Below are positions 13,153 to 53,136 of a DNA stretch of 57,756 nucleotides, piece by piece. The first letter of the stretch is position 1. Every line of letters begins with the position of its first letter. The stretch lies in the sequence record PV808483.1; one strand, written 5' to 3'. Source of the stretch: a phage. The position numbers and the translations under genes are program-made. The notes under the pieces are model-generated. The model saw only the letters and a list, made by a program, of their open reading frames with translations. It ran no database searches and was not told where the DNA came from.

Positions 13153-13478
13153 AAATATGACCCTACAATTGCAGCACAGTTGACGATCGCTAAACGCGTT
13201 GCTTTTTCACGGTCTTCTCCGTGGCTAACTGGTTGTTTATAACTAACGCCAGTGTCAGGGTTATTAACCGTCACTTCGTTGTCACGAATATCCAGATCCA
13301 TGTACATGTTAACCATCAGACTGAAAGCATCCTCATTACGTGTAAGAGGATTCCACAGGCGACCATTACCTATATCAATACCTTCGTTTATGTAACGTTC
13401 GTCGTACGCGACGTAATATTTACCCTGGATTTCAGCAGCCCGTGCTGCGTTGACTAATAAATCACGATTGTTCATCAT
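13149..13478 (-). CDS. hypothetical protein
   Basis: 109-aa ORF with start/stop overlap to the dUTPase gene. Confidence 0.45.
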   Translation of the reverse strand: MMNNRDLLVNAARAAEIQGKYYVAYDERYINEGIDIGNGRLWNPLTRNEDAFSLMVNMYMDLDIRDNEVTVNNPDTGVSYKQPVSHGEDREKATRLAIVNCAAIVGSYL

Positions 13479-13978
13479 ACCCGTCCTGTTGATCCAAACC
13501 CGCCATTACGCTGACTATCAACATCTGGTAATTCTTCCACTTCAACCAGGTTAACAGGTTCGACACGTTCAACCATAAGCTGACAAACACGTTCACCGTC
13601 TGCGATAGTCTGTAATTTCTGCCCGTGGTTAGTCAGCGTAACGTAGTATTCTTCTTTGTAATCACGATCACCGATACCCACACAGTTGATCAGTGACAAA
13701 CCGTGTTTAAGACTCATGCCGGAACGTGGATAGAATTTAATGCAATATCCGCTATCAACTGACATTTTCAGACCAGTTGGGATCATAGCGCGGTCGCCTG
13801 GCCATAATGCGATTGTTCCTGCAACAACCGGACGTTCCACTTTAGCGCCTGATTCCGTGAATATAGTTACCGATTCTTCCCACAGGCAAGCACGAACGTC
13901 TAACCCTGCGCTGTCCGGTGTTGCACGTGTCGGAAGTTCAGCGCGGGGTGTTAGTTTTTTGATATACAGGTTAGTCAT
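13475..13978 (-). CDS. dut: dUTP diphosphatase (dUTPase)
   Basis: C-terminal RNGGFGSTG motif and AGLDVRA motif typical of trimeric dUTPases. Confidence 0.75.
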   Translation of the reverse strand: MTNLYIKKLTPRAELPTRATPDSAGLDVRACLWEESVTIFTESGAKVERPVVAGTIALWPGDRAMIPTGLKMSVDSGYCIKFYPRSGMSLKHGLSLINCVGIGDRDYKEEYYVTLTNHGQKLQTIADGERVCQLMVERVEPVNLVEVEELPDVDSQRNGGFGSTGRV

Positions 13979-14085: not shown

Positions 14086-14745
14086 ATGATGCGTAACTTT
14101 AACTGGAGTGAAGCACCTAACTGGGCTACATGTGTTGTTAAACCGAAAATTAAAGAACTCAGTGATGATTATCACTGGTCAGAAGAACCCTGTGCATCTG
14201 CACGCGTGATGAGAATTGAAACAGGTATTGGATTTACAATGAACTGTGAAAATTTCTGGGAAATCGTTGAAAAACGCCCTGTAGGTTCACCACGGGATGT
14301 AACGGTTACTCGTGTTAACGACGACCAGTTAGTCAAATATGGTTATACTATTCATACCAATGATAAAATAGCAAAATATGAACAACCATCAACAGTAACC
14401 CGTGCGTCTAGACCAACACCACCTTCAAATTGTCGGTGTACATTCACACCTGTTCAACAACCATCAACAGCGTCTGACTTGCTGAAACAGGCTGAACAGC
14501 TACTGACAGAACGTGGTAAGCAGTATGACACGTCTGGTCAGGAACGTTCGCCAGCTAAAATCGTTGCTGCGTTTAACACAATTACCGGGCGCGACTTAAC
14601 ACCGGGTGAAGGGTGGTTGTTTTTGATGTTGTTAAAAGCGGTTCGTTTCTATTCCAACACTGAAACACCACATCGTGACAGTCTGGAAGACCTGATCAGC
14701 TATGCTGCATTACACGCAGAGGAATATCTTAACAATGAACGGTGA
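14086..14745 (+). CDS. hypothetical protein
   Basis: 219 aa; GAGG upstream; no family recognised. Confidence 0.5.
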   Translation: MMRNFNWSEAPNWATCVVKPKIKELSDDYHWSEEPCASARVMRIETGIGFTMNCENFWEIVEKRPVGSPRDVTVTRVNDDQLVKYGYTIHTNDKIAKYEQPSTVTRASRPTPPSNCRCTFTPVQQPSTASDLLKQAEQLLTERGKQYDTSGQERSPAKIVAAFNTITGRDLTPGEGWLFLMLLKAVRFYSNTETPHRDSLEDLISYAALHAEEYLNNER

Positions 14746-38144: not shown

Positions 38145-38646
38145 AACAATAACTCCTGTACGCTTGTCGTTTTATTTTCTGATAGTCGGAAACTTTTACA
38201 GATCTCGTTTTACATTCACCGATACGATATGGGTCGAAAACAAACATCACCTGTGAACGGTCATTTCCTCCTGCTGGTAACCTGGTGTCAGGATCTACAA
38301 ACGCTATACGACCTTTAAACACCCATAGTTCCGAACAATGTGTCAGTGCTTTGTGAAACCAGTCTGCAGACGTCATAGCGTTCACGAGTAATAACGAACC
38401 AGTTCCTTGATGAACAGTGGTTATTATTTTATTAACCCATGGAGACGGATCGCTGTATGGTGGATTACACCAGACGAACCCACCACCATTACTTTGAACA
38501 ATCGAATTCCAGTCTTTATTCAGACTATCAGTGATAAACAACGAACATTTAGCGTTAGAACCATCGGTACACACATCAAGAACAAGTGGGAATTCACGAG
38601 AAACGTTATCAATAAAATCCCACGGTGTTTCCCAGTTGTCTTTAGC
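38110..38646 (-). CDS. dam: DNA N6-adenine methyltransferase (phage Dam family)
   Basis: WETPWDFI N-terminus and VWCNPPYS catalytic motif; ORF 38110..38766 trimmed to the ATG at 38646. Confidence 0.75.
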   Translation of the reverse strand, partial: AKDNWETPWDFIDNVSREFPLVLDVCTDGSNAKCSLFITDSLNKDWNSIVQSNGGGFVWCNPPYSDPSPWVNKIITTVHQGTGSLLLVNAMTSADWFHKALTHCSELWVFKGRIAFVDPDTRLPAGGNDRSQVMFVFDPYRIGECKTRSVKVSDYQKIKRQAYRSYCYVSNRSHGGPS

Positions 38647-38998
38647 CATGTTCCGGTACGCTCTCCACGCTGTAATAAACGGGGATACCCAGACGTTCAG
38701 CTTCTGCAATTTCCGCAATAGTCCCGGACGAACGACGATAATCAGGAAGCACCAGAACAGCGTCACAGCGGCGCATAATTTCTAACGTGCCTGACAGGTA
38801 GTATTCAGGTTGTATATTGCGTAAACCTCCGTCAAAGTCCCACAATTCGGTGTTCTTGTGAGGGATAACAGGGAACCACCCCGGACGTTGTAAAGCAAGT
38901 CGTTTACCTGCCTGTTCAGCGCGTGACACGTTACGGGATGTTTTAAGCGCACAGTCAGCACGATAAGGCCCGGCAATGTAACAGAGTTTAATCATGGT
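38642..38998 (-). CDS. nucleoside 2-deoxyribosyltransferase-like protein
   Basis: CYIAGPYRA N-terminal motif and C-terminal DAVLVLPDYRRSSGTIAEIAEAERLGIPVY; ORF 38642..39085 trimmed to the ATG at 38998. Confidence 0.55.
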   Translation of the reverse strand, partial: TMIKLCYIAGPYRADCALKTSRNVSRAEQAGKRLALQRPGWFPVIPHKNTELWDFDGGLRNIQPEYYLSGTLEIMRRCDAVLVLPDYRRSSGTIAEIAEAERLGIPVYYSVESVPEHG

Positions 38999-48163: not shown

Positions 48164-50518
48164 ATGAAAGGGTTACTGAACCGTAAACAGTGGGTCATGT
48201 GGCGGCTTGAGACAGTCGCCGATCGTCCAAAACCAACGAAAGTACCATACAGCCCGGTACACGGTTATAAAGCCAGTACCACTAACCCTAATGACTGGTC
48301 TGACTATCACACCGCGTTAGGTATGGCGCAAATGTACGGCATGTCTGGTGTTGGTTTTGTATTCACAGAAAACGACCCTTATTTCTTTATTGATGTCGAT
48401 AACTGTCTGGTAGATCAGGCAACAGCTACGTGGTCACCACTAGCGCATGAATTCGTAAACCGTTTTCCAAATGCTTACACTGAAGTCAGTCAGTCAGGAA
48501 CAGGTTTGCACATCATCTGTGCTTATACCAGCATACCGGAAGGTTTTAACAGTCTGAACGACCAGAAAACCGGGCTGGAAATGTATTGGCGTGATCGTTT
48601 CGTCGCGATGACGCTCACGGGTAATGGTGATGTTGATATTGATTATACCCAGGGTATTCATGATTCTATTGCCCGGTATGGTCGCATCCGTTCAGACCGT
48701 TCCGCACGCTGGACAACAGCACCCTGTGATGACTGGTCAGGCCCGGCAGACGATGATGAACTGATTAAAATGGCGTTAAATTCGTCCAGTGCTGCTTCAG
48801 TATTTGGTAATAAAGCGTCGTTTGCGGATCTGTGGAATGCAAACGTTGAACGCCTGTCTGTGTCATATCCCAGCGACCAGGGAAAAGACTACAATGCATC
48901 TGCCGCTGATGCTGCTCTGTGCTCACACCTTGCTTTCTGGACCGGGAAAGATTGCGAACGTATTGAACGTCTATTTAACCGTTCCGGACTGGTTCGTGGT
49001 AAATGGACAGATCGTCAGGATTACCGTGAAAACACGATTCTTGGCGCTGTGGAACGTTGTGATACTGTGTATCGTAGTCAACCGACAATGACACCAGAAC
49101 TGATGAAAGCAGTCACACCAGCGCCTACCGTCGTTCCTAATGGTGGAACACCTGCGTATATGAGTGTGAAACCCGGTGAAGGTGCATATGGTTCAAACCA
49201 CACGGTTAACGCATCCACTTTCGTTAATAACTATTATCCGAACAACACATTGATTTTCGTCCAGCAACAGCCGTACCGGTTCAACGGTCGCGTGTGGGAA
49301 CGTGTCAGTGAAGATGAACTGAAACATCAAATTTCTATGGCAATGCTTGCCAGCGAACCAAAAGCTGACGTGATTAATGGTACGTACAAGGTTTTGTCGT
49401 ATTTATTCACACGCGCTGATCGTGAGCTTGGAACATGGCCCGGTGTTGATGTATCACACTATATTGTTTGTCAGAACGGGATACTGGATGTACACACGGG
49501 TAAATGTGATGCACATAACCCGGACTTCTTTACAACCAGTATTTTACCGTATAGCTATGATCCGTTTGCCCGTGCACCAGCGTTTGAACAGTTTCTTAAT
49601 ACAACTCTGGAAGGTGATCAGGAACGTATTGCATTGTTGCAGGAATGGCTGGGTTACATGCTTGTCAACTCGTATGACTATCAGAAAGCGATGTTGTTGA
49701 TTGGTGCACCACGTTCCGGTAAAGGCACGATTGGTCGCATCATTCAGGCACTGGTAGGTGATGAAGCGTACGCAGGGATCACACTGGAGGGTTTAGCTAG
49801 TGATGCGGTACTTGAAACTGTGCTGGATAAATCTGTGCTGTTTATCGGTGATGCTCACAGTGTGTCCGGGCCTGATCGCAACCGAATTCTGGACCGTTTC
49901 AAATCTATTACAGGTTGTGATGCGATTCCGGTTAATCGTAAGTATAAAGGTGCATGGAACGGTCGTTTACCTGGACGTATGACACTGGCTGCTAACAACA
50001 TCCCGGCATTTGCTGATGATTCCGGTGCAATGGCTAACCGTTTGCTGATCCTACCGTTCAACATTTCGTTCCTGGGTCGTGAAGATACTACTCTGGAAGC
50101 ACGACTGATGAAAGAACTACCGGGGATCTGTAACTGGGCGATTGAAGGTTTACAACGGTTACGTGCAAACGGACGGTTTACTGAACCAAAAGCAAGTCTG
50201 GAAGAACGTCAGGAAATTATGGATCAACAATCACCACTTAGAAGTTTTATCAGAGATTGTTGCGAATTGGTATCTGATGGTGAGGTGCACACTGAAGAAC
50301 TCTATGGTCGTTATCGTCTCTGGAAAACACAGGAAGGTGGTCCAGCAATGACTAAAACTGCATTTAGTCGGGCGTTTAAATCCACCCTTCGTGGTAAAGT
50401 GAAAAAAGACGTTGTTAATATAAATAACGTACGATTAAACGGTTTCAGGGGTATTCGTCTTCTCCCTTTTCAGTCAACAGCTAATGTAGTGCCTTTCCCA
50501 CCAGTGAGTAATGGTTAG
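48164..50518 (+). CDS. primase/helicase: AEP primase-polymerase N-terminus, PriCT-like region, SF3 helicase C-terminus
   Basis: FIDVDNC and SQSGTGLHI (AEP motifs); LLIGAPRSGKGT Walker A in the C-terminal half. Confidence 0.7.
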   Translation: MKGLLNRKQWVMWRLETVADRPKPTKVPYSPVHGYKASTTNPNDWSDYHTALGMAQMYGMSGVGFVFTENDPYFFIDVDNCLVDQATATWSPLAHEFVNRFPNAYTEVSQSGTGLHIICAYTSIPEGFNSLNDQKTGLEMYWRDRFVAMTLTGNGDVDIDYTQGIHDSIARYGRIRSDRSARWTTAPCDDWSGPADDDELIKMALNSSSAASVFGNKASFADLWNANVERLSVSYPSDQGKDYNASAADAALCSHLAFWTGKDCERIERLFNRSGLVRGKWTDRQDYRENTILGAVERCDTVYRSQPTMTPELMKAVTPAPTVVPNGGTPAYMSVKPGEGAYGSNHTVNASTFVNNYYPNNTLIFVQQQPYRFNGRVWERVSEDELKHQISMAMLASEPKADVINGTYKVLSYLFTRADRELGTWPGVDVSHYIVCQNGILDVHTGKCDAHNPDFFTTSILPYSYDPFARAPAFEQFLNTTLEGDQERIALLQEWLGYMLVNSYDYQKAMLLIGAPRSGKGTIGRIIQALVGDEAYAGITLEGLASDAVLETVLDKSVLFIGDAHSVSGPDRNRILDRFKSITGCDAIPVNRKYKGAWNGRLPGRMTLAANNIPAFADDSGAMANRLLILPFNISFLGREDTTLEARLMKELPGICNWAIEGLQRLRANGRFTEPKASLEERQEIMDQQSPLRSFIRDCCELVSDGEVHTEELYGRYRLWKTQEGGPAMTKTAFSRAFKSTLRGKVKKDVVNINNVRLNGFRGIRLLPFQSTANVVPFPPVSNG

Positions 50519-50532
50519 TCGTTGCACAAGGA

Positions 50533-50577
50533 CGTGTAAAATAATTCTTGACGAATTACAGATATGTGCGCTATAGT
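50533..50577 (+). promoter_or_regulatory. sigma70-like promoter, UP element + TTGACG, 18-bp spacer, TATAGT
   Basis: Copy of the conserved element in forward orientation. Confidence 0.55.
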
Positions 50578-50608
50578 CTGTACATCAAGTGAACAAGGAG
50601 TGATTGTT

Positions 50609-50821
50609 ATGAAACCACGCTACCGATTAATGAGACTTTCACAGTGTCCTAACGGAACACGGTTTTATTTTTATCGTCTGAAGCAACTATTACCTTTCAC
50701 GTTAATTGCTAACAGCTTCAAGAAACACGAAAGTATTTATCACGAGGGTCATGATTTTAATATAACCGCGCGAAAATACAGAACGTCTATTTATAAACTT
50801 GTGTGGGCTAAGGTGAACTAA
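50609..50821 (+). CDS. hypothetical small protein
   Basis: ORF 50564..50821 trimmed to the ATG at 50609 with AGGAG upstream. Confidence 0.45.
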   Translation: MKPRYRLMRLSQCPNGTRFYFYRLKQLLPFTLIANSFKKHESIYHEGHDFNITARKYRTSIYKLVWAKVN

Positions 50822-50822
50822 A

Positions 50823-51020
50823 ATGAAAAACATATTTGACCGTTTAATTACTGTTATTGTATTTCTTGTATCCGTAACGCTCGCGTCTTGTATTGTCGGA
50901 CTAATGACCCGTGGTAATCATGCAGAAACTCCGTGGTGGTTTCTGGCAGGTATTGGATTATTAGCGGCTGCTGCATCAATTGGCGCTTGCATGTGGGGAG
51001 TGAAAAACGATCATGACTGA
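50823..51020 (+). CDS. small membrane protein
   Basis: 65 aa with two hydrophobic helices. Confidence 0.45.
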   Translation: MKNIFDRLITVIVFLVSVTLASCIVGLMTRGNHAETPWWFLAGIGLLAAAASIGACMWGVKNDHD

Positions 51021-51228
51021 GTTCGGTGCTGTAATCAAAAAAGAAGACCGTTATGCACATATTGATACCCGGATTACCTGGGTTGATATCAGTGAAGCTA
51101 CTCTGTTCAGTTCAACTTACATGGCTGGTGTTGCACTTAAAGCACTTCGTGATCAAGGTTTCAATTGCAGAAAAGTAACAGTTGCATCTGTTAAAATCAC
51201 GCGGATCGTCGAGGAGACAGAAGGGTGA
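51013..51228 (+). CDS. hypothetical small protein
   Basis: 71-aa ORF overlapping neighbours. Confidence 0.4.
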   Translation: MTEFGAVIKKEDRYAHIDTRITWVDISEATLFSSTYMAGVALKALRDQGFNCRKVTVASVKITRIVEETEG

Positions 51229-51905
51229 ATATTGTATGGTCGTTATTCGATGGTTCCGGGATTATGGGTTTACCGTGGGCTAAGGCTGACTATCAGGTTT
51301 ATTGCTTTAATGCTGATTCCGGTAATCACGGAGAATATAAAATCAAAGATGAACACCCAAATCTTCATTACGTTAATCAGTGGATTGACCCACAATTTGC
51401 AATTAAGCAGGAAATACTGGGAACACCTTTACCGTCAATTATTTTTGGTTTTCCTGATTGCACCCTGTTTGCTCAAAGCGGTTCGCAACATGACCGGGAT
51501 GACGCTGAACTACAGTATGCACTGGCAAACGCAAAACTGATCCGTGAACTCGGAGAACGTTATAACGTACCCTGGATGGTCGAAAACCCTGTCGGTGCTT
51601 TATCACGTCCTGAAATGATGGGGACACCTGACGCTTATTTTCAACCGTGGGAATATGGCGGTTATATGACAACAGATGATAAACCGTTTCACCCTAAAAT
51701 GCCGATGTTTGACGGATACACGAAGAAAACATGTCTGTGGTTCGGTAACGGTTTCAAAATGCCTGAAAAACGTCCCGGACCGATTAATATTGGTTTCTTC
51801 TGGGGCTGGAAATATCTGGGTGGTAAGTCTGAAACAACTAAACAATTACGTTCATTAACCCCGCGTGGCTTTGCTCGCGCTGTATTTGAGGCTAATAAAC
51901 AATGA
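51225..51905 (+). CDS. short C5-cytosine-methyltransferase-like protein lacking an obvious target-recognition domain
   Basis: LFDGSG (motif I-like), FGFPDCTLFAQSG (PC-motif-like), MVENPVG (ENV-like), C-terminal LTPRGFARA. Confidence 0.5.
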   Translation: MNIVWSLFDGSGIMGLPWAKADYQVYCFNADSGNHGEYKIKDEHPNLHYVNQWIDPQFAIKQEILGTPLPSIIFGFPDCTLFAQSGSQHDRDDAELQYALANAKLIRELGERYNVPWMVENPVGALSRPEMMGTPDAYFQPWEYGGYMTTDDKPFHPKMPMFDGYTKKTCLWFGNGFKMPEKRPGPINIGFFWGWKYLGGKSETTKQLRSLTPRGFARAVFEANKQ

Positions 51906-52297
51906 TAATTGTCGTCACAGGTGGTCGTGACTTTAACGACAGAACAGCAGTGTTTTCCGCGTTAGGACTACTTCACAAACAATTTCCGGTTACCGAACTG
52001 ATTGAAGGTGGTGCGTCAGGTGTTGATAACCTGTGTAAGCAATGGGCGCAATTACACGGTATTCCTGTGCGTAGTTGCCCGGCAGCGTGGGACGATCTGA
52101 CTGTACCTGGTGCGGTTGTAAAACAAGGTGAGCACGGGCCTTATAACGCTGTTGCAGGTCATCAACGTAATCAGGCGATGTTAGAGGGTGAACCACGCCC
52201 TACATACGGTGTTGTGTTCCCCGGTGGGCGTGGTACGGCTGATATGCACCGTCGCATGTTGAAAGCTGGTTTAACCGTGTGGGTTCCGTATCCTTAA
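51902..52297 (+). CDS. SLOG-fold protein (DUF2493/YpsA-like)
   Basis: VVTGGRDFND ... LIEGGASGVDNL ... WA pattern. Confidence 0.5.
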   Translation: MIIVVTGGRDFNDRTAVFSALGLLHKQFPVTELIEGGASGVDNLCKQWAQLHGIPVRSCPAAWDDLTVPGAVVKQGEHGPYNAVAGHQRNQAMLEGEPRPTYGVVFPGGRGTADMHRRMLKAGLTVWVPYP

Positions 52298-52334
52298 AAT
52301 AATTCTTGACAGATTACCAACCCTCCCCGATAAT
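52295..52334 (+). promoter_or_regulatory. sigma70-like promoter, UP element + TTGACA, 17-bp spacer, GATAAT
   Basis: Copy of the conserved element. Confidence 0.55.
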
Positions 52335-52335
52335 T

Positions 52336-52360
52336 AGCCTCAGTTAACACACATGAGGCT
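52336..52360 (+). promoter_or_regulatory. palindromic element AGCCTCA-N11-TGAGGCT between the -10 and the start codon; inverted copy of the element at 15256..15279
   Basis: Nearly the exact reverse complement of the other copy (one indel); overlaps the Shine-Dalgarno GAGG. Confidence 0.5.
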
Positions 52361-52368
52361 AAACACAA

Positions 52369-53136
52369 ATGGCTAACATTAACTCCCTTCGCAAACTGTC
52401 TGATACCGATAAAACCAACGTAAAACGTGGTAATGCGTATCGTATTGATCCGCGTATTATCAAGATTCGTCCAGGACATAACCCACGCGGTGTGTTTACC
52501 GACAACTACTGGGAAACTGAAGCAGCACTGGCACACATTGAAAACTTTCGTCAGGCTTATACTAACGGCGATTTCGTTCCACCCATCGTGGTACAGGTTG
52601 TTGACGGTGTTCCGTATGTCCAGGATGGTGAGCATCGTTTACGTGGTGTATTGGCAGCTATTGACGCCGGGACGCCGATTCTGACAGTAGACGTTGTTGA
52701 ATCGTCCGGTGACGAACTACAACAGACCCTGACACTGTTAAAAGGTAATGAAGGTAAACCGTGGTCCCCTGTTGAACGTGCTGTTATTTACGGTCGTTTC
52801 CGTTCATATGGCATGAGTGTTGAGCAGATCGCTACACAGGTCGGTAAAACCGTTCAGCACGTTTACGAACAACTGAATATTCTTGATATGCCGCTGGAAC
52901 TTAAACGTCGTATTCAGAACGGCGAAATCAGCGCGTCAGCAGCCATTCGCCAGTTTAAAGCAGGTGATAAAGAACCAGTAGTAACGCGTCGTCCGCCTGC
53001 TAAACTGGTACGGTCTGCAGTGGAAGCAATCCGTGGTGAATGGTCTGTAACCCGTTCGGAAGGTGGTAAAGTCCTGGTTGAACTTACCGCTGAACAGTTT
53101 GAAGCGTTAAAAGCACTGAAGGAGCACCAGTTATGA
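52369..53136 (+). CDS. ParB-like nuclease domain protein
   Basis: VQDGEHRLRG motif in an N-terminal ParB/Srx-like region. Confidence 0.55.
   Translation: MANINSLRKLSDTDKTNVKRGNAYRIDPRIIKIRPGHNPRGVFTDNYWETEAALAHIENFRQAYTNGDFVPPIVVQVVDGVPYVQDGEHRLRGVLAAIDAGTPILTVDVVESSGDELQQTLTLLKGNEGKPWSPVERAVIYGRFRSYGMSVEQIATQVGKTVQHVYEQLNILDMPLELKRRIQNGEISASAAIRQFKAGDKEPVVTRRPPAKLVRSAVEAIRGEWSVTRSEGGKVLVELTAEQFEALKALKEHQL

Follow-up and report, generated by a model that had tools for sequence, protein, structure and literature searches.

The 57,756-nucleotide stretch of phage DNA analysed here (sequence record PV808483.1, the window) contains an operon of five small genes between positions 50,533 and 52,297. 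The fourth gene (gene 4) probably encodes an orphan S-adenosylmethionine (SAM)-dependent enzyme forming 5-methylcytosine (5mC), and the fifth (gene 5) a SLOG-fold protein that shares the transcript and is independent of the enzyme. This assignment draws on sequence and on analogy to a characterized relative. An active 5mC-forming enzyme is the simplest reading of gene 4, because the catalytic residues are invariant and the protein shares 42% full-length identity with the experimentally tested Dcm homologue of phage K42. The window is colinear with the genome of Escherichia phage vB_EcoS_PJ16 (OQ955832), a 9NA-like siphovirus (Nonanavirus/Sashavirus). Both are 57,756 bp long and about 96% identical, with intact open reading frames (ORFs). 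A preliminary description of this DNA had assigned a methyltransferase fold to gene 4 and a SLOG fold to gene 5; both assignments withstood structure prediction and profile comparison (AlphaFold models, phrog_757, PF10686).

51225–51905, plus strand: gene 4, 226 amino acids (aa), predicted short Dcm-like DNA cytosine-C5 methyltransferase without target-recognition domain; GTG start, GAGGAG ribosome-binding site

A probable short cytosine-C5 methyltransferase

The gene 4 protein carries the C5-methyltransferase motifs I, IV and VI named in the preliminary description. Motif I reads F8-D-G-S-G12, as in K42 Dcm, motif IV reads F76-P-D-C79, where most relatives have FPPC, and motif VI reads E120-N-P-V. 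The sequence Y165-T-K167-K168-T169 stands where the QxRxR of motif VIII would be. The protein closes with the signature R209-S-L-T-P-R-G-F (protein end LRSLTPRGFARAVFEANKQ; family signature LRSLTPRGFARAVF), and the form [IL]RSxTPRGF recurs at the C-terminus across the family. In 92 diverse family members (29-86% identity to the gene 4 protein), C79, E120 and K167 never vary; K168 is invariant in a closer set of 42 sequences. The protein matches phrog_757, annotated as 'DNA methyltransferase', with an E-value of 6.6e-77.

A C5-methyltransferase fold is predicted with high confidence. The AlphaFold model, computed with 42 homologues, comprises one domain with a mean predicted local distance difference test (pLDDT) score of 91.4 and a predicted template modelling (pTM) score of 0.89. 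Residues 81-90, just past the catalytic cysteine, form the sole low-confidence stretch and may correspond, by analogy, to the flexible active-site loop of M.HhaI. Past K168, 58 residues remain in gene 4, as against 162 past the equivalent R165 in M.HhaI (327 aa; the sequence used was 100% identical to database protein P0391). The protein is therefore, as had been suggested, too short for a normal target-recognition domain, and none is present between motifs VIII and IX.

General family models did not register the protein. No Pfam match was obtained (none to PF00145 at E≤1) and no NCBIfam match, and PADLOC returned no useful matches. Since the Pfam and NCBIfam models miss the gene 4 family, automated annotation under-reports the C5 methylation capacity of phages. 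A weak phmmer alignment with M.HaeIII covers motifs I to VI, and hhalign of the family profile against the M.HhaI-family profile aligned motifs IV to VI only, weakly (E 0.059). Forced global or low-threshold hhalign runs between the two families gave a nonsense alignment. For the C-terminus with motif X (GN[AS]V), neither hhalign nor hidden Markov model (HMM) searches yielded a usable alignment. Because the profile alignments failed there, motifs IX and X and the equivalent of HhaI Asn304 are not assigned to individual residues; R209-S210 might tentatively be taken as a DNMT3-like motif X.

Distribution of the family and the K42 Dcm relative

Members of the gene 4 family were detected by tblastn in 1,491 of 50,697 phage records. 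With about 3% of sequenced phages, the family represents very common phage orphan C5-methyltransferases. Carriers include Drexlerviridae, KP36-like Klebsiella phages, Vequintavirinae, phi92-like and Jersey-like phages, among others. The annotation in BASEL phages reads 'Dcm-like C5 cytosine methyltransferase'. When 1.84 billion representatives were searched with a profile (E≤1e-3, clustered at 50% identity), 1,789 clusters were obtained. Among the top 150, nearly all full-length members have 200-260 aa and align end to end. This uniform length identifies the shortness of gene 4 as a stable family property and not as a truncation.

The closest experimental evidence comes from phage K42, which is 95.4% identical to KarlJaspers/Bas06. 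All K42 mutants escaping retron Ec86 (Ec86/Eco1) had a disrupted 711-bp dcm gene, and expression of K42 Dcm was toxic only in the presence of the retron (10.1101/2023.08.16.553469). LC-MS (liquid chromatography coupled to mass spectrometry) detected high 5mC in the multicopy single-stranded DNA (msDNA) of the retron with wild-type K42 Dcm, and not with C82A/E128A/K175A/K176A; defence was lost when CCTGG in the stem-loop of the msDNA was mutated (10.1101/2023.08.16.553469). In reference 12 of PMC12746101, the preprint is listed as Cell Rep 2024;43:114857.

The corresponding gene of KarlJaspers/Bas06 (MZ501090), bas06_0055, has 711 bp and encodes 236 aa. Its residues C82, E128, K175 and K176 sit on FPPC, IENP and FKKT, in exact agreement with the numbering of the K42 study. 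BLASTP aligned gene 4 with bas06_0055 at 42% identity over residues 3-226 (E 2e-57). The mutated residues C82/E128/K175/K176 align to C79/E120/K167/K168 of gene 4. Both proteins share the short single-domain architecture, the motifs FDGSG, FPxC, ENPV, KKT and RSLTPRGFARAVFEAN, and the PHROG-type annotation in BASEL phages. They differ in 58% of residues, mostly in the central region, and in their origin, Drexlerviridae for K42/Bas06 Dcm and a 9NA-like phage for gene 4. Gene 4 would work like a C5-methyltransferase and belongs to a distinct phage family that is already recognised and partly characterised. It needs no new category, as one member is already known to form 5mC and to trigger retron Ec86.

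The SLOG protein

51902–52297, plus strand: gene 5, 131-aa YAcAr/DUF2493 SLOG-fold protein; LOG-like motifs GGR, GxAxGxD, AGxxRNxxM and FPGGxGTADM

The preliminary description had called the 131-aa protein SLOG/DUF2493-like, and profile and model agree. Gene 5 matches PF10686 with 70.4 bits (cut-off 28.2; E 1.1e-19) over model positions 1-64 of 66. Its predicted structure (pLDDT 95.6) is a Rossmann-type SLOG fold with glycine-rich loops. A search of the SLOG profile against Protein Data Bank (PDB) sequences gave no significant match. LOG enzymes are characterized by a PGGxGTxxE motif and a catalytic arginine. With other members of the SLOG superfamily (LOG, YpsA, DprA and the SLOG domain of ThsA), gene 5 shares the fold and the glycine-rich and PGGxGT motifs. 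It differs in being a stand-alone protein of 131 aa, without fusion to TIR, SIR2, helicase or Macro domains. By analogy, the motifs point to the binding or processing of nucleotides more than to a pure sensor function.

The family occurs in 639 phage records, mainly of Ackermannviridae and of Vibrio, Rhodobacter and Seuratvirus-type phages. Among 80 viral SLOG loci, a superfamily 2 (SF2) helicase gene is the commonest neighbour; in most of 13 loci it comes next on the downstream side. Other recurrent neighbours are sigma-70-like, nuclease-like and beta-clamp genes. An unrelated contig (L180, 753-3634) encodes in order a metallophosphoesterase, a dATP/dGTP diphosphohydrolase (PF18909), an NDT-like protein, a YAcAr SLOG protein and a dCMP deaminase, a gene order by which the SLOG family of phages falls into a cluster of deoxynucleotide metabolism. 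HelB of phage ICP1 is a fusion of a SLOG-type domain to an SF1B helicase (10.1101/671271). YAcAr domains have been predicted by the Aravind group to use NAD+ (PMC7824862). The papers found on PF10686 describe no member with demonstrated activity.

The Salmonella relatives Sasha, Sergei and Solent carry an HNH endonuclease gene right behind the SLOG gene (L003:3419-3847), which the window does not have.

Proposed reaction and role

The reaction proposed for gene 4 is modelled on the standard C5-methyltransferase reaction and on the K42 mutants. The cytosine would be flipped out and attacked at C6 by Cys79. N3 would be protonated by Glu120 (ENP motif), and Lys167/Lys168 would substitute for the motif VIII arginines; to judge from the K42 mutant, the KKT sequence is a likely functional analogue of motif VIII. 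The methyl group of SAM would move to C5, and release of the enzyme would leave 5-methylcytosine. Contacts to DNA could be provided by HPKMPxxDGYTKKT (before strand 7) and GGKSxxTKxLRSLTPRGF (C-terminus). Because only 58 residues follow motif VIII, recognition of DNA would fall to such conserved, family-specific loops. A more remote reading is that gene 4, lacking a recognition domain, shows little or no sequence preference in methylating, or responds to the structure of DNA and not to its sequence.

The host RNA polymerase would transcribe the unit, whose five accessory genes, coupled in translation, lie next to the replication genes. Gene 5 would act as a nucleotide-binding or nucleotide-processing accessory, not as a methyltransferase partner. 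What the phage would gain is protection against m5C-sensitive restriction, which is the weakest step of the proposal. Drexlerviridae commonly encode such C5-methyltransferases, and an anti-restriction function is presumed (PMC8594841). Their known cost is that they can trigger retron Ec86. Site counts in the window were uninformative (101 CCWGG sites, observed/expected 0.73; GATC, observed/expected 0.79), and the difference of about 4% between the window and the deposited genome OQ955832 calls for caution with such short-site statistics.

Several observations weigh against an active 5mC-forming enzyme with a protective role. PF00145 reaches E<0.01 in only 2 of the 92 gene 4 relatives, and the first glycine of motif I is variable in the wider family (FDxTG). 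Searches of PDB sequences with the gene 4 protein and two family profiles gave nothing significant; the best matches were M.HaeIII (E 1.3) and DNMT2 (E 0.076). The CCWGG specificity of K42 Dcm was assumed by analogy to the host Dcm, with only the msDNA site mutation tested (10.1101/2023.08.16.553469). In the dcm+ host MG1655, the retron was not triggered when the phage enzyme was absent (10.1101/2023.08.16.553469), so the phage enzyme differs somehow from host Dcm. An identity of 42% leaves room for divergence, and by sequence the specificity of gene 4 may differ from that of K42 Dcm. In the BASEL collection, no simple link was found between phage methyltransferase genes and restriction resistance (PMC8594841). 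Bas82, which naturally has no methyltransferase, is viable, though markedly restriction-sensitive (PMC11990801). The role proposed for gene 5, most likely that of an accessory in the module for phage replication and nucleotide metabolism, is deduced from fold, motifs and gene context.

Association of the methyltransferase and SLOG genes

The adjacency of genes 4 and 5 had been taken to imply a functional pair. The SLOG protein would then be a LOG-like N-glycosidase that removes methylated or otherwise modified nucleotides or counters methylation-sensing defences, or it would supply or sense a ligand for the methyltransferase. Such a pairing is unlikely. It would fit the 4-nt overlap of the two genes and the LOG-like PGGxGT, acidic and arginine motifs retained in gene 5. 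The SLOG gene was sought within 4 kb of the methyltransferase gene in 80 IMG/VR viral loci encoding the short methyltransferase. It was present in seven, all 9NA-like, and absent from 73, which argues against the pair. Phage 9NA (L006) has the methyltransferase and no SLOG gene; Bas82 has the SLOG gene, with a 65-aa ORF (L002:2822-3019) in the place of the methyltransferase. Both families occur mostly in different phage groups, the SLOG family mainly beside helicases, and K42 Dcm was active when expressed alone.

A contig of 25 kb (L151, 3312-4588), unrelated to the window, is the only clearly independent adjacency found. Here, a 177-aa YAcAr SLOG gene comes directly before, and overlaps, the gene of a 252-aa short C5-methyltransferase, an order that is the reverse of that in the window. 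This arrangement counts in favour of the pair. An obligate methyltransferase-SLOG pair is ruled out, while a weak recurrent association is possible.

Near-identical phages differ at the C5-methyltransferase slot. The protein of the phage Sasha allele (L003:2326-3027) is 51% identical to gene 4, as against 96% identity for the SLOG protein next to it. The two methyltransferase alleles are conserved at both termini and diverged in between. No papers on Sashavirus methyltransferases were found. With 56% identity, the Sasha allele is closer to KarlJaspers Dcm than to the allele of the window. In the AVIO78A match, 66% of the region is covered and no methyltransferase is annotated.

A split enzyme with a separate recognition subunit was considered and found unsupported; the recurrent neighbours in the 80 methyltransferase loci are small unassigned proteins and a helicase.

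A second methyltransferase slot lies on the minus strand of the window. A Dam-type gene (PF05869, 38110-38649) overlaps an NDT/DUF7768/DUF4406-like gene upstream of it (38642-38995). Among close relatives, 9NA included (L171:2501-3623; L176:2501-4022), a PF01555 N6/N4 methyltransferase with 297 or 393 aa comes after the NDT-like gene. One methyltransferase family has been exchanged for another beside a conserved neighbour. In 9NA-like phages, both slots adjoin a small Rossmann-type, N-glycosidase-like protein, a LOG-like SLOG protein after the C5-methyltransferase and an NDT/DNPH1-like protein before the adenine methyltransferase. Both neighbours stay constant, whereas the methyltransferase beside them changes by allele or by family. 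The constancy of the Rossmann-type neighbour in the second slot speaks for the pair. That the neighbours in the two slots act as hydrolases on methylated mononucleotides (5-methyl-dCMP, m6-dAMP) or on related signals is quite improbable. If they do, a methylating phage would avoid re-incorporation of methylated nucleotides or detection by defences that sense methylation products.

Comparison with other C5-methyltransferases

By its sequence, gene 4 agrees in all respects with the short phage Dcm-like enzymes: in homology, in the four residues, in the single domain of about 210-260 aa and in the signature. With the canonical PF00145 enzymes (M.HhaI, M.HaeIII and E. coli Dcm) it shares the fold, motif I, the cysteine of motif IV and the glutamate of motif VI. 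It differs from them in lacking the target-recognition domain and the QxRxR of motif VIII and in staying below the Pfam threshold.

The catalytic domains of DNMT3A and DNMT3B have a reduced recognition region, as has gene 4, and K42 Dcm was superposed on DNMT3A by the authors of the K42 study (10.1101/2023.08.16.553469). The identity of DNMT3A/DNMT3B to gene 4 is 14%. The DNMT3B chain of 291 aa keeps a small recognition loop and the partner interfaces, whereas gene 4 is 65 aa shorter, with Lys-Lys replacing the arginines of motif VIII.

CmoX (8yf3), a DNA cytosine C5-carboxymethyltransferase, is likewise a phage enzyme, and a ParB-type gene lies near gene 4 as in many CmoX contigs. CmoX has 333 aa, a recognition region, an SPPC motif and the partners CmoA and CmoY (PMC12783734). 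Gene 4 has FPDC instead of SPPC, and its neighbours are small unassigned proteins, the SLOG gene and the ParB-like gene.

Transfer of a group other than methyl, e.g. carboxymethyl from the carboxy-SAM (Cx-SAM) of the host as in CmoX, is very unlikely for gene 4, and so is a single-stranded DNA or RNA substrate in place of duplex phage DNA. CmoX selects Cx-SAM via an arginine at the position of HhaI Asn304 (PMC12783734), and the gene 4 family has a near-invariant R209-S210 just ahead of the C-terminal helix. An equivalence of R209 with the Asn304-type residue was, however, not obtained by profile alignment. DNMT3A has Arg-Ser at the motif X position and uses SAM, which counts against a non-methyl donor. 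A different substrate would suit the action of the K42 enzyme on an msDNA stem-loop and the lack of a domain for reading duplex sequence in gene 4. Against these readings, 5mC was found by LC-MS for the K42 homologue, and the surroundings of gene 4 showed no homologue of CmoA or CmoY.

The preliminary description had favoured a decoy or a non-canonical modification over Dcm methylation. The results for K42 Dcm, its 5mC product and the conserved residues do not support this; they contradict the decoy and make a non-methyl modification unlikely. A catalytically inert decoy, or a protein sequestering SAM or DNA, is hardly credible: the very short chain without recognition domain and the failure of the PF00145 and NCBIfam models would fit it, but Cys79, the ENP glutamate and Lys167 are invariant in the 92 members drawn from a family of 1,789 clusters, Lys168 in the 42-sequence set, and the catalytic-site mutant of K42 Dcm loses both methylation and phenotype.

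Promoter and operon layout

50538–50577, plus strand: conserved sigma-70-type promoter; AAAATAATTCTTGAC block including -35 TTGACG, 18-nt spacer and -10 TATAGT
50609–50821, plus strand: gene 1, 70 aa, function unassigned, phrog_9291 (E 2.3e-37); PJ16_081 at equal coordinates
50823–51020, plus strand: gene 2, 65 aa, small membrane protein or lipoprotein, phrog_22517 (E 1.3e-47)
51013–51228, plus strand: gene 3, 71 aa, function unassigned, phrog_26050 (E 1.6e-46); 8-nt overlap with gene 2, 4-nt overlap with gene 4
52296–52334, plus strand: next conserved promoter copy, TTGACA-17-GATAAT; 3' operon boundary, drives the ParB-like gene 52369-53136

The five-gene operon behind one copy of a conserved promoter, as originally described, is borne out by the coupled or overlapping genes and by 11 exact copies of AAAATAATTCTTGAC in the window. 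A promoter scan placed TTGACG-18-TATAGT at 50548-50577 with 10 of 12 matches. The 15-mer AAAATAATTCTTGAC occupies 50538-50552. Its exact copies lie on both strands and start at 1520, 3795, 10674, 12896, 14038, 17572, 17888, 27471, 44558, 50538 and 52296. Allowing up to three mismatches, 14 matches were found in the window versus 3.6 expected from shuffled sequences. The copies consist of an A/T-rich block and the -35 element. Each apparently heads a block of non-structural genes. They form a genome-wide conserved promoter family.

The 15-mer of the next copy (52296-52310) stands right behind the stop codon of gene 5. With conserved promoter copies at both ends, the five genes form one promoter-bounded unit. 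Genes 1 and 2 are spaced 50821/50823; an 8-nt overlap and two 4-nt overlaps follow. In the PJ16 annotation, the five genes have coordinates identical to those in the window. PHROG families for all five, together with hundreds of homologues for genes 4 and 5, identify them as real genes and not as chance ORFs. Upstream of the operon, a D5-type primase-helicase is encoded (48164-50518). The ParB-like protein downstream (52369-53136) has a match to the ParB helix-turn-helix (HTH) domain and to phrog_1033.

For gene 1, 50609 was taken as the start, because the ATG of the longer ORF (50564) falls within the promoter and that ORF is covered by the PHROG match only from residue 16 on. Position 50609 has an AAGGAG ribosome-binding site ahead of it. 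For the homologue of gene 2 in Sasha, the annotation lists a signal peptidase II site and two transmembrane domains. Gene 3 is retained in Bas82, a phage without the methyltransferase.

Between the -10 element of the second promoter and the start codon of the ParB-like gene, an inverted repeat, TAGCCTCA-N11-TGAGGCTA, is located at 52336-52362. It could represent an operator or a hairpin in the 5' untranslated region. Elsewhere in the window, a 219-aa protein with a DUF6378 match (E 3e-7) is encoded at 14086-14745, beside a dUTPase-like gene (13475-13978). Its homologue in phage PDP46 is annotated as 'nucleotide modification associated domain 1'.

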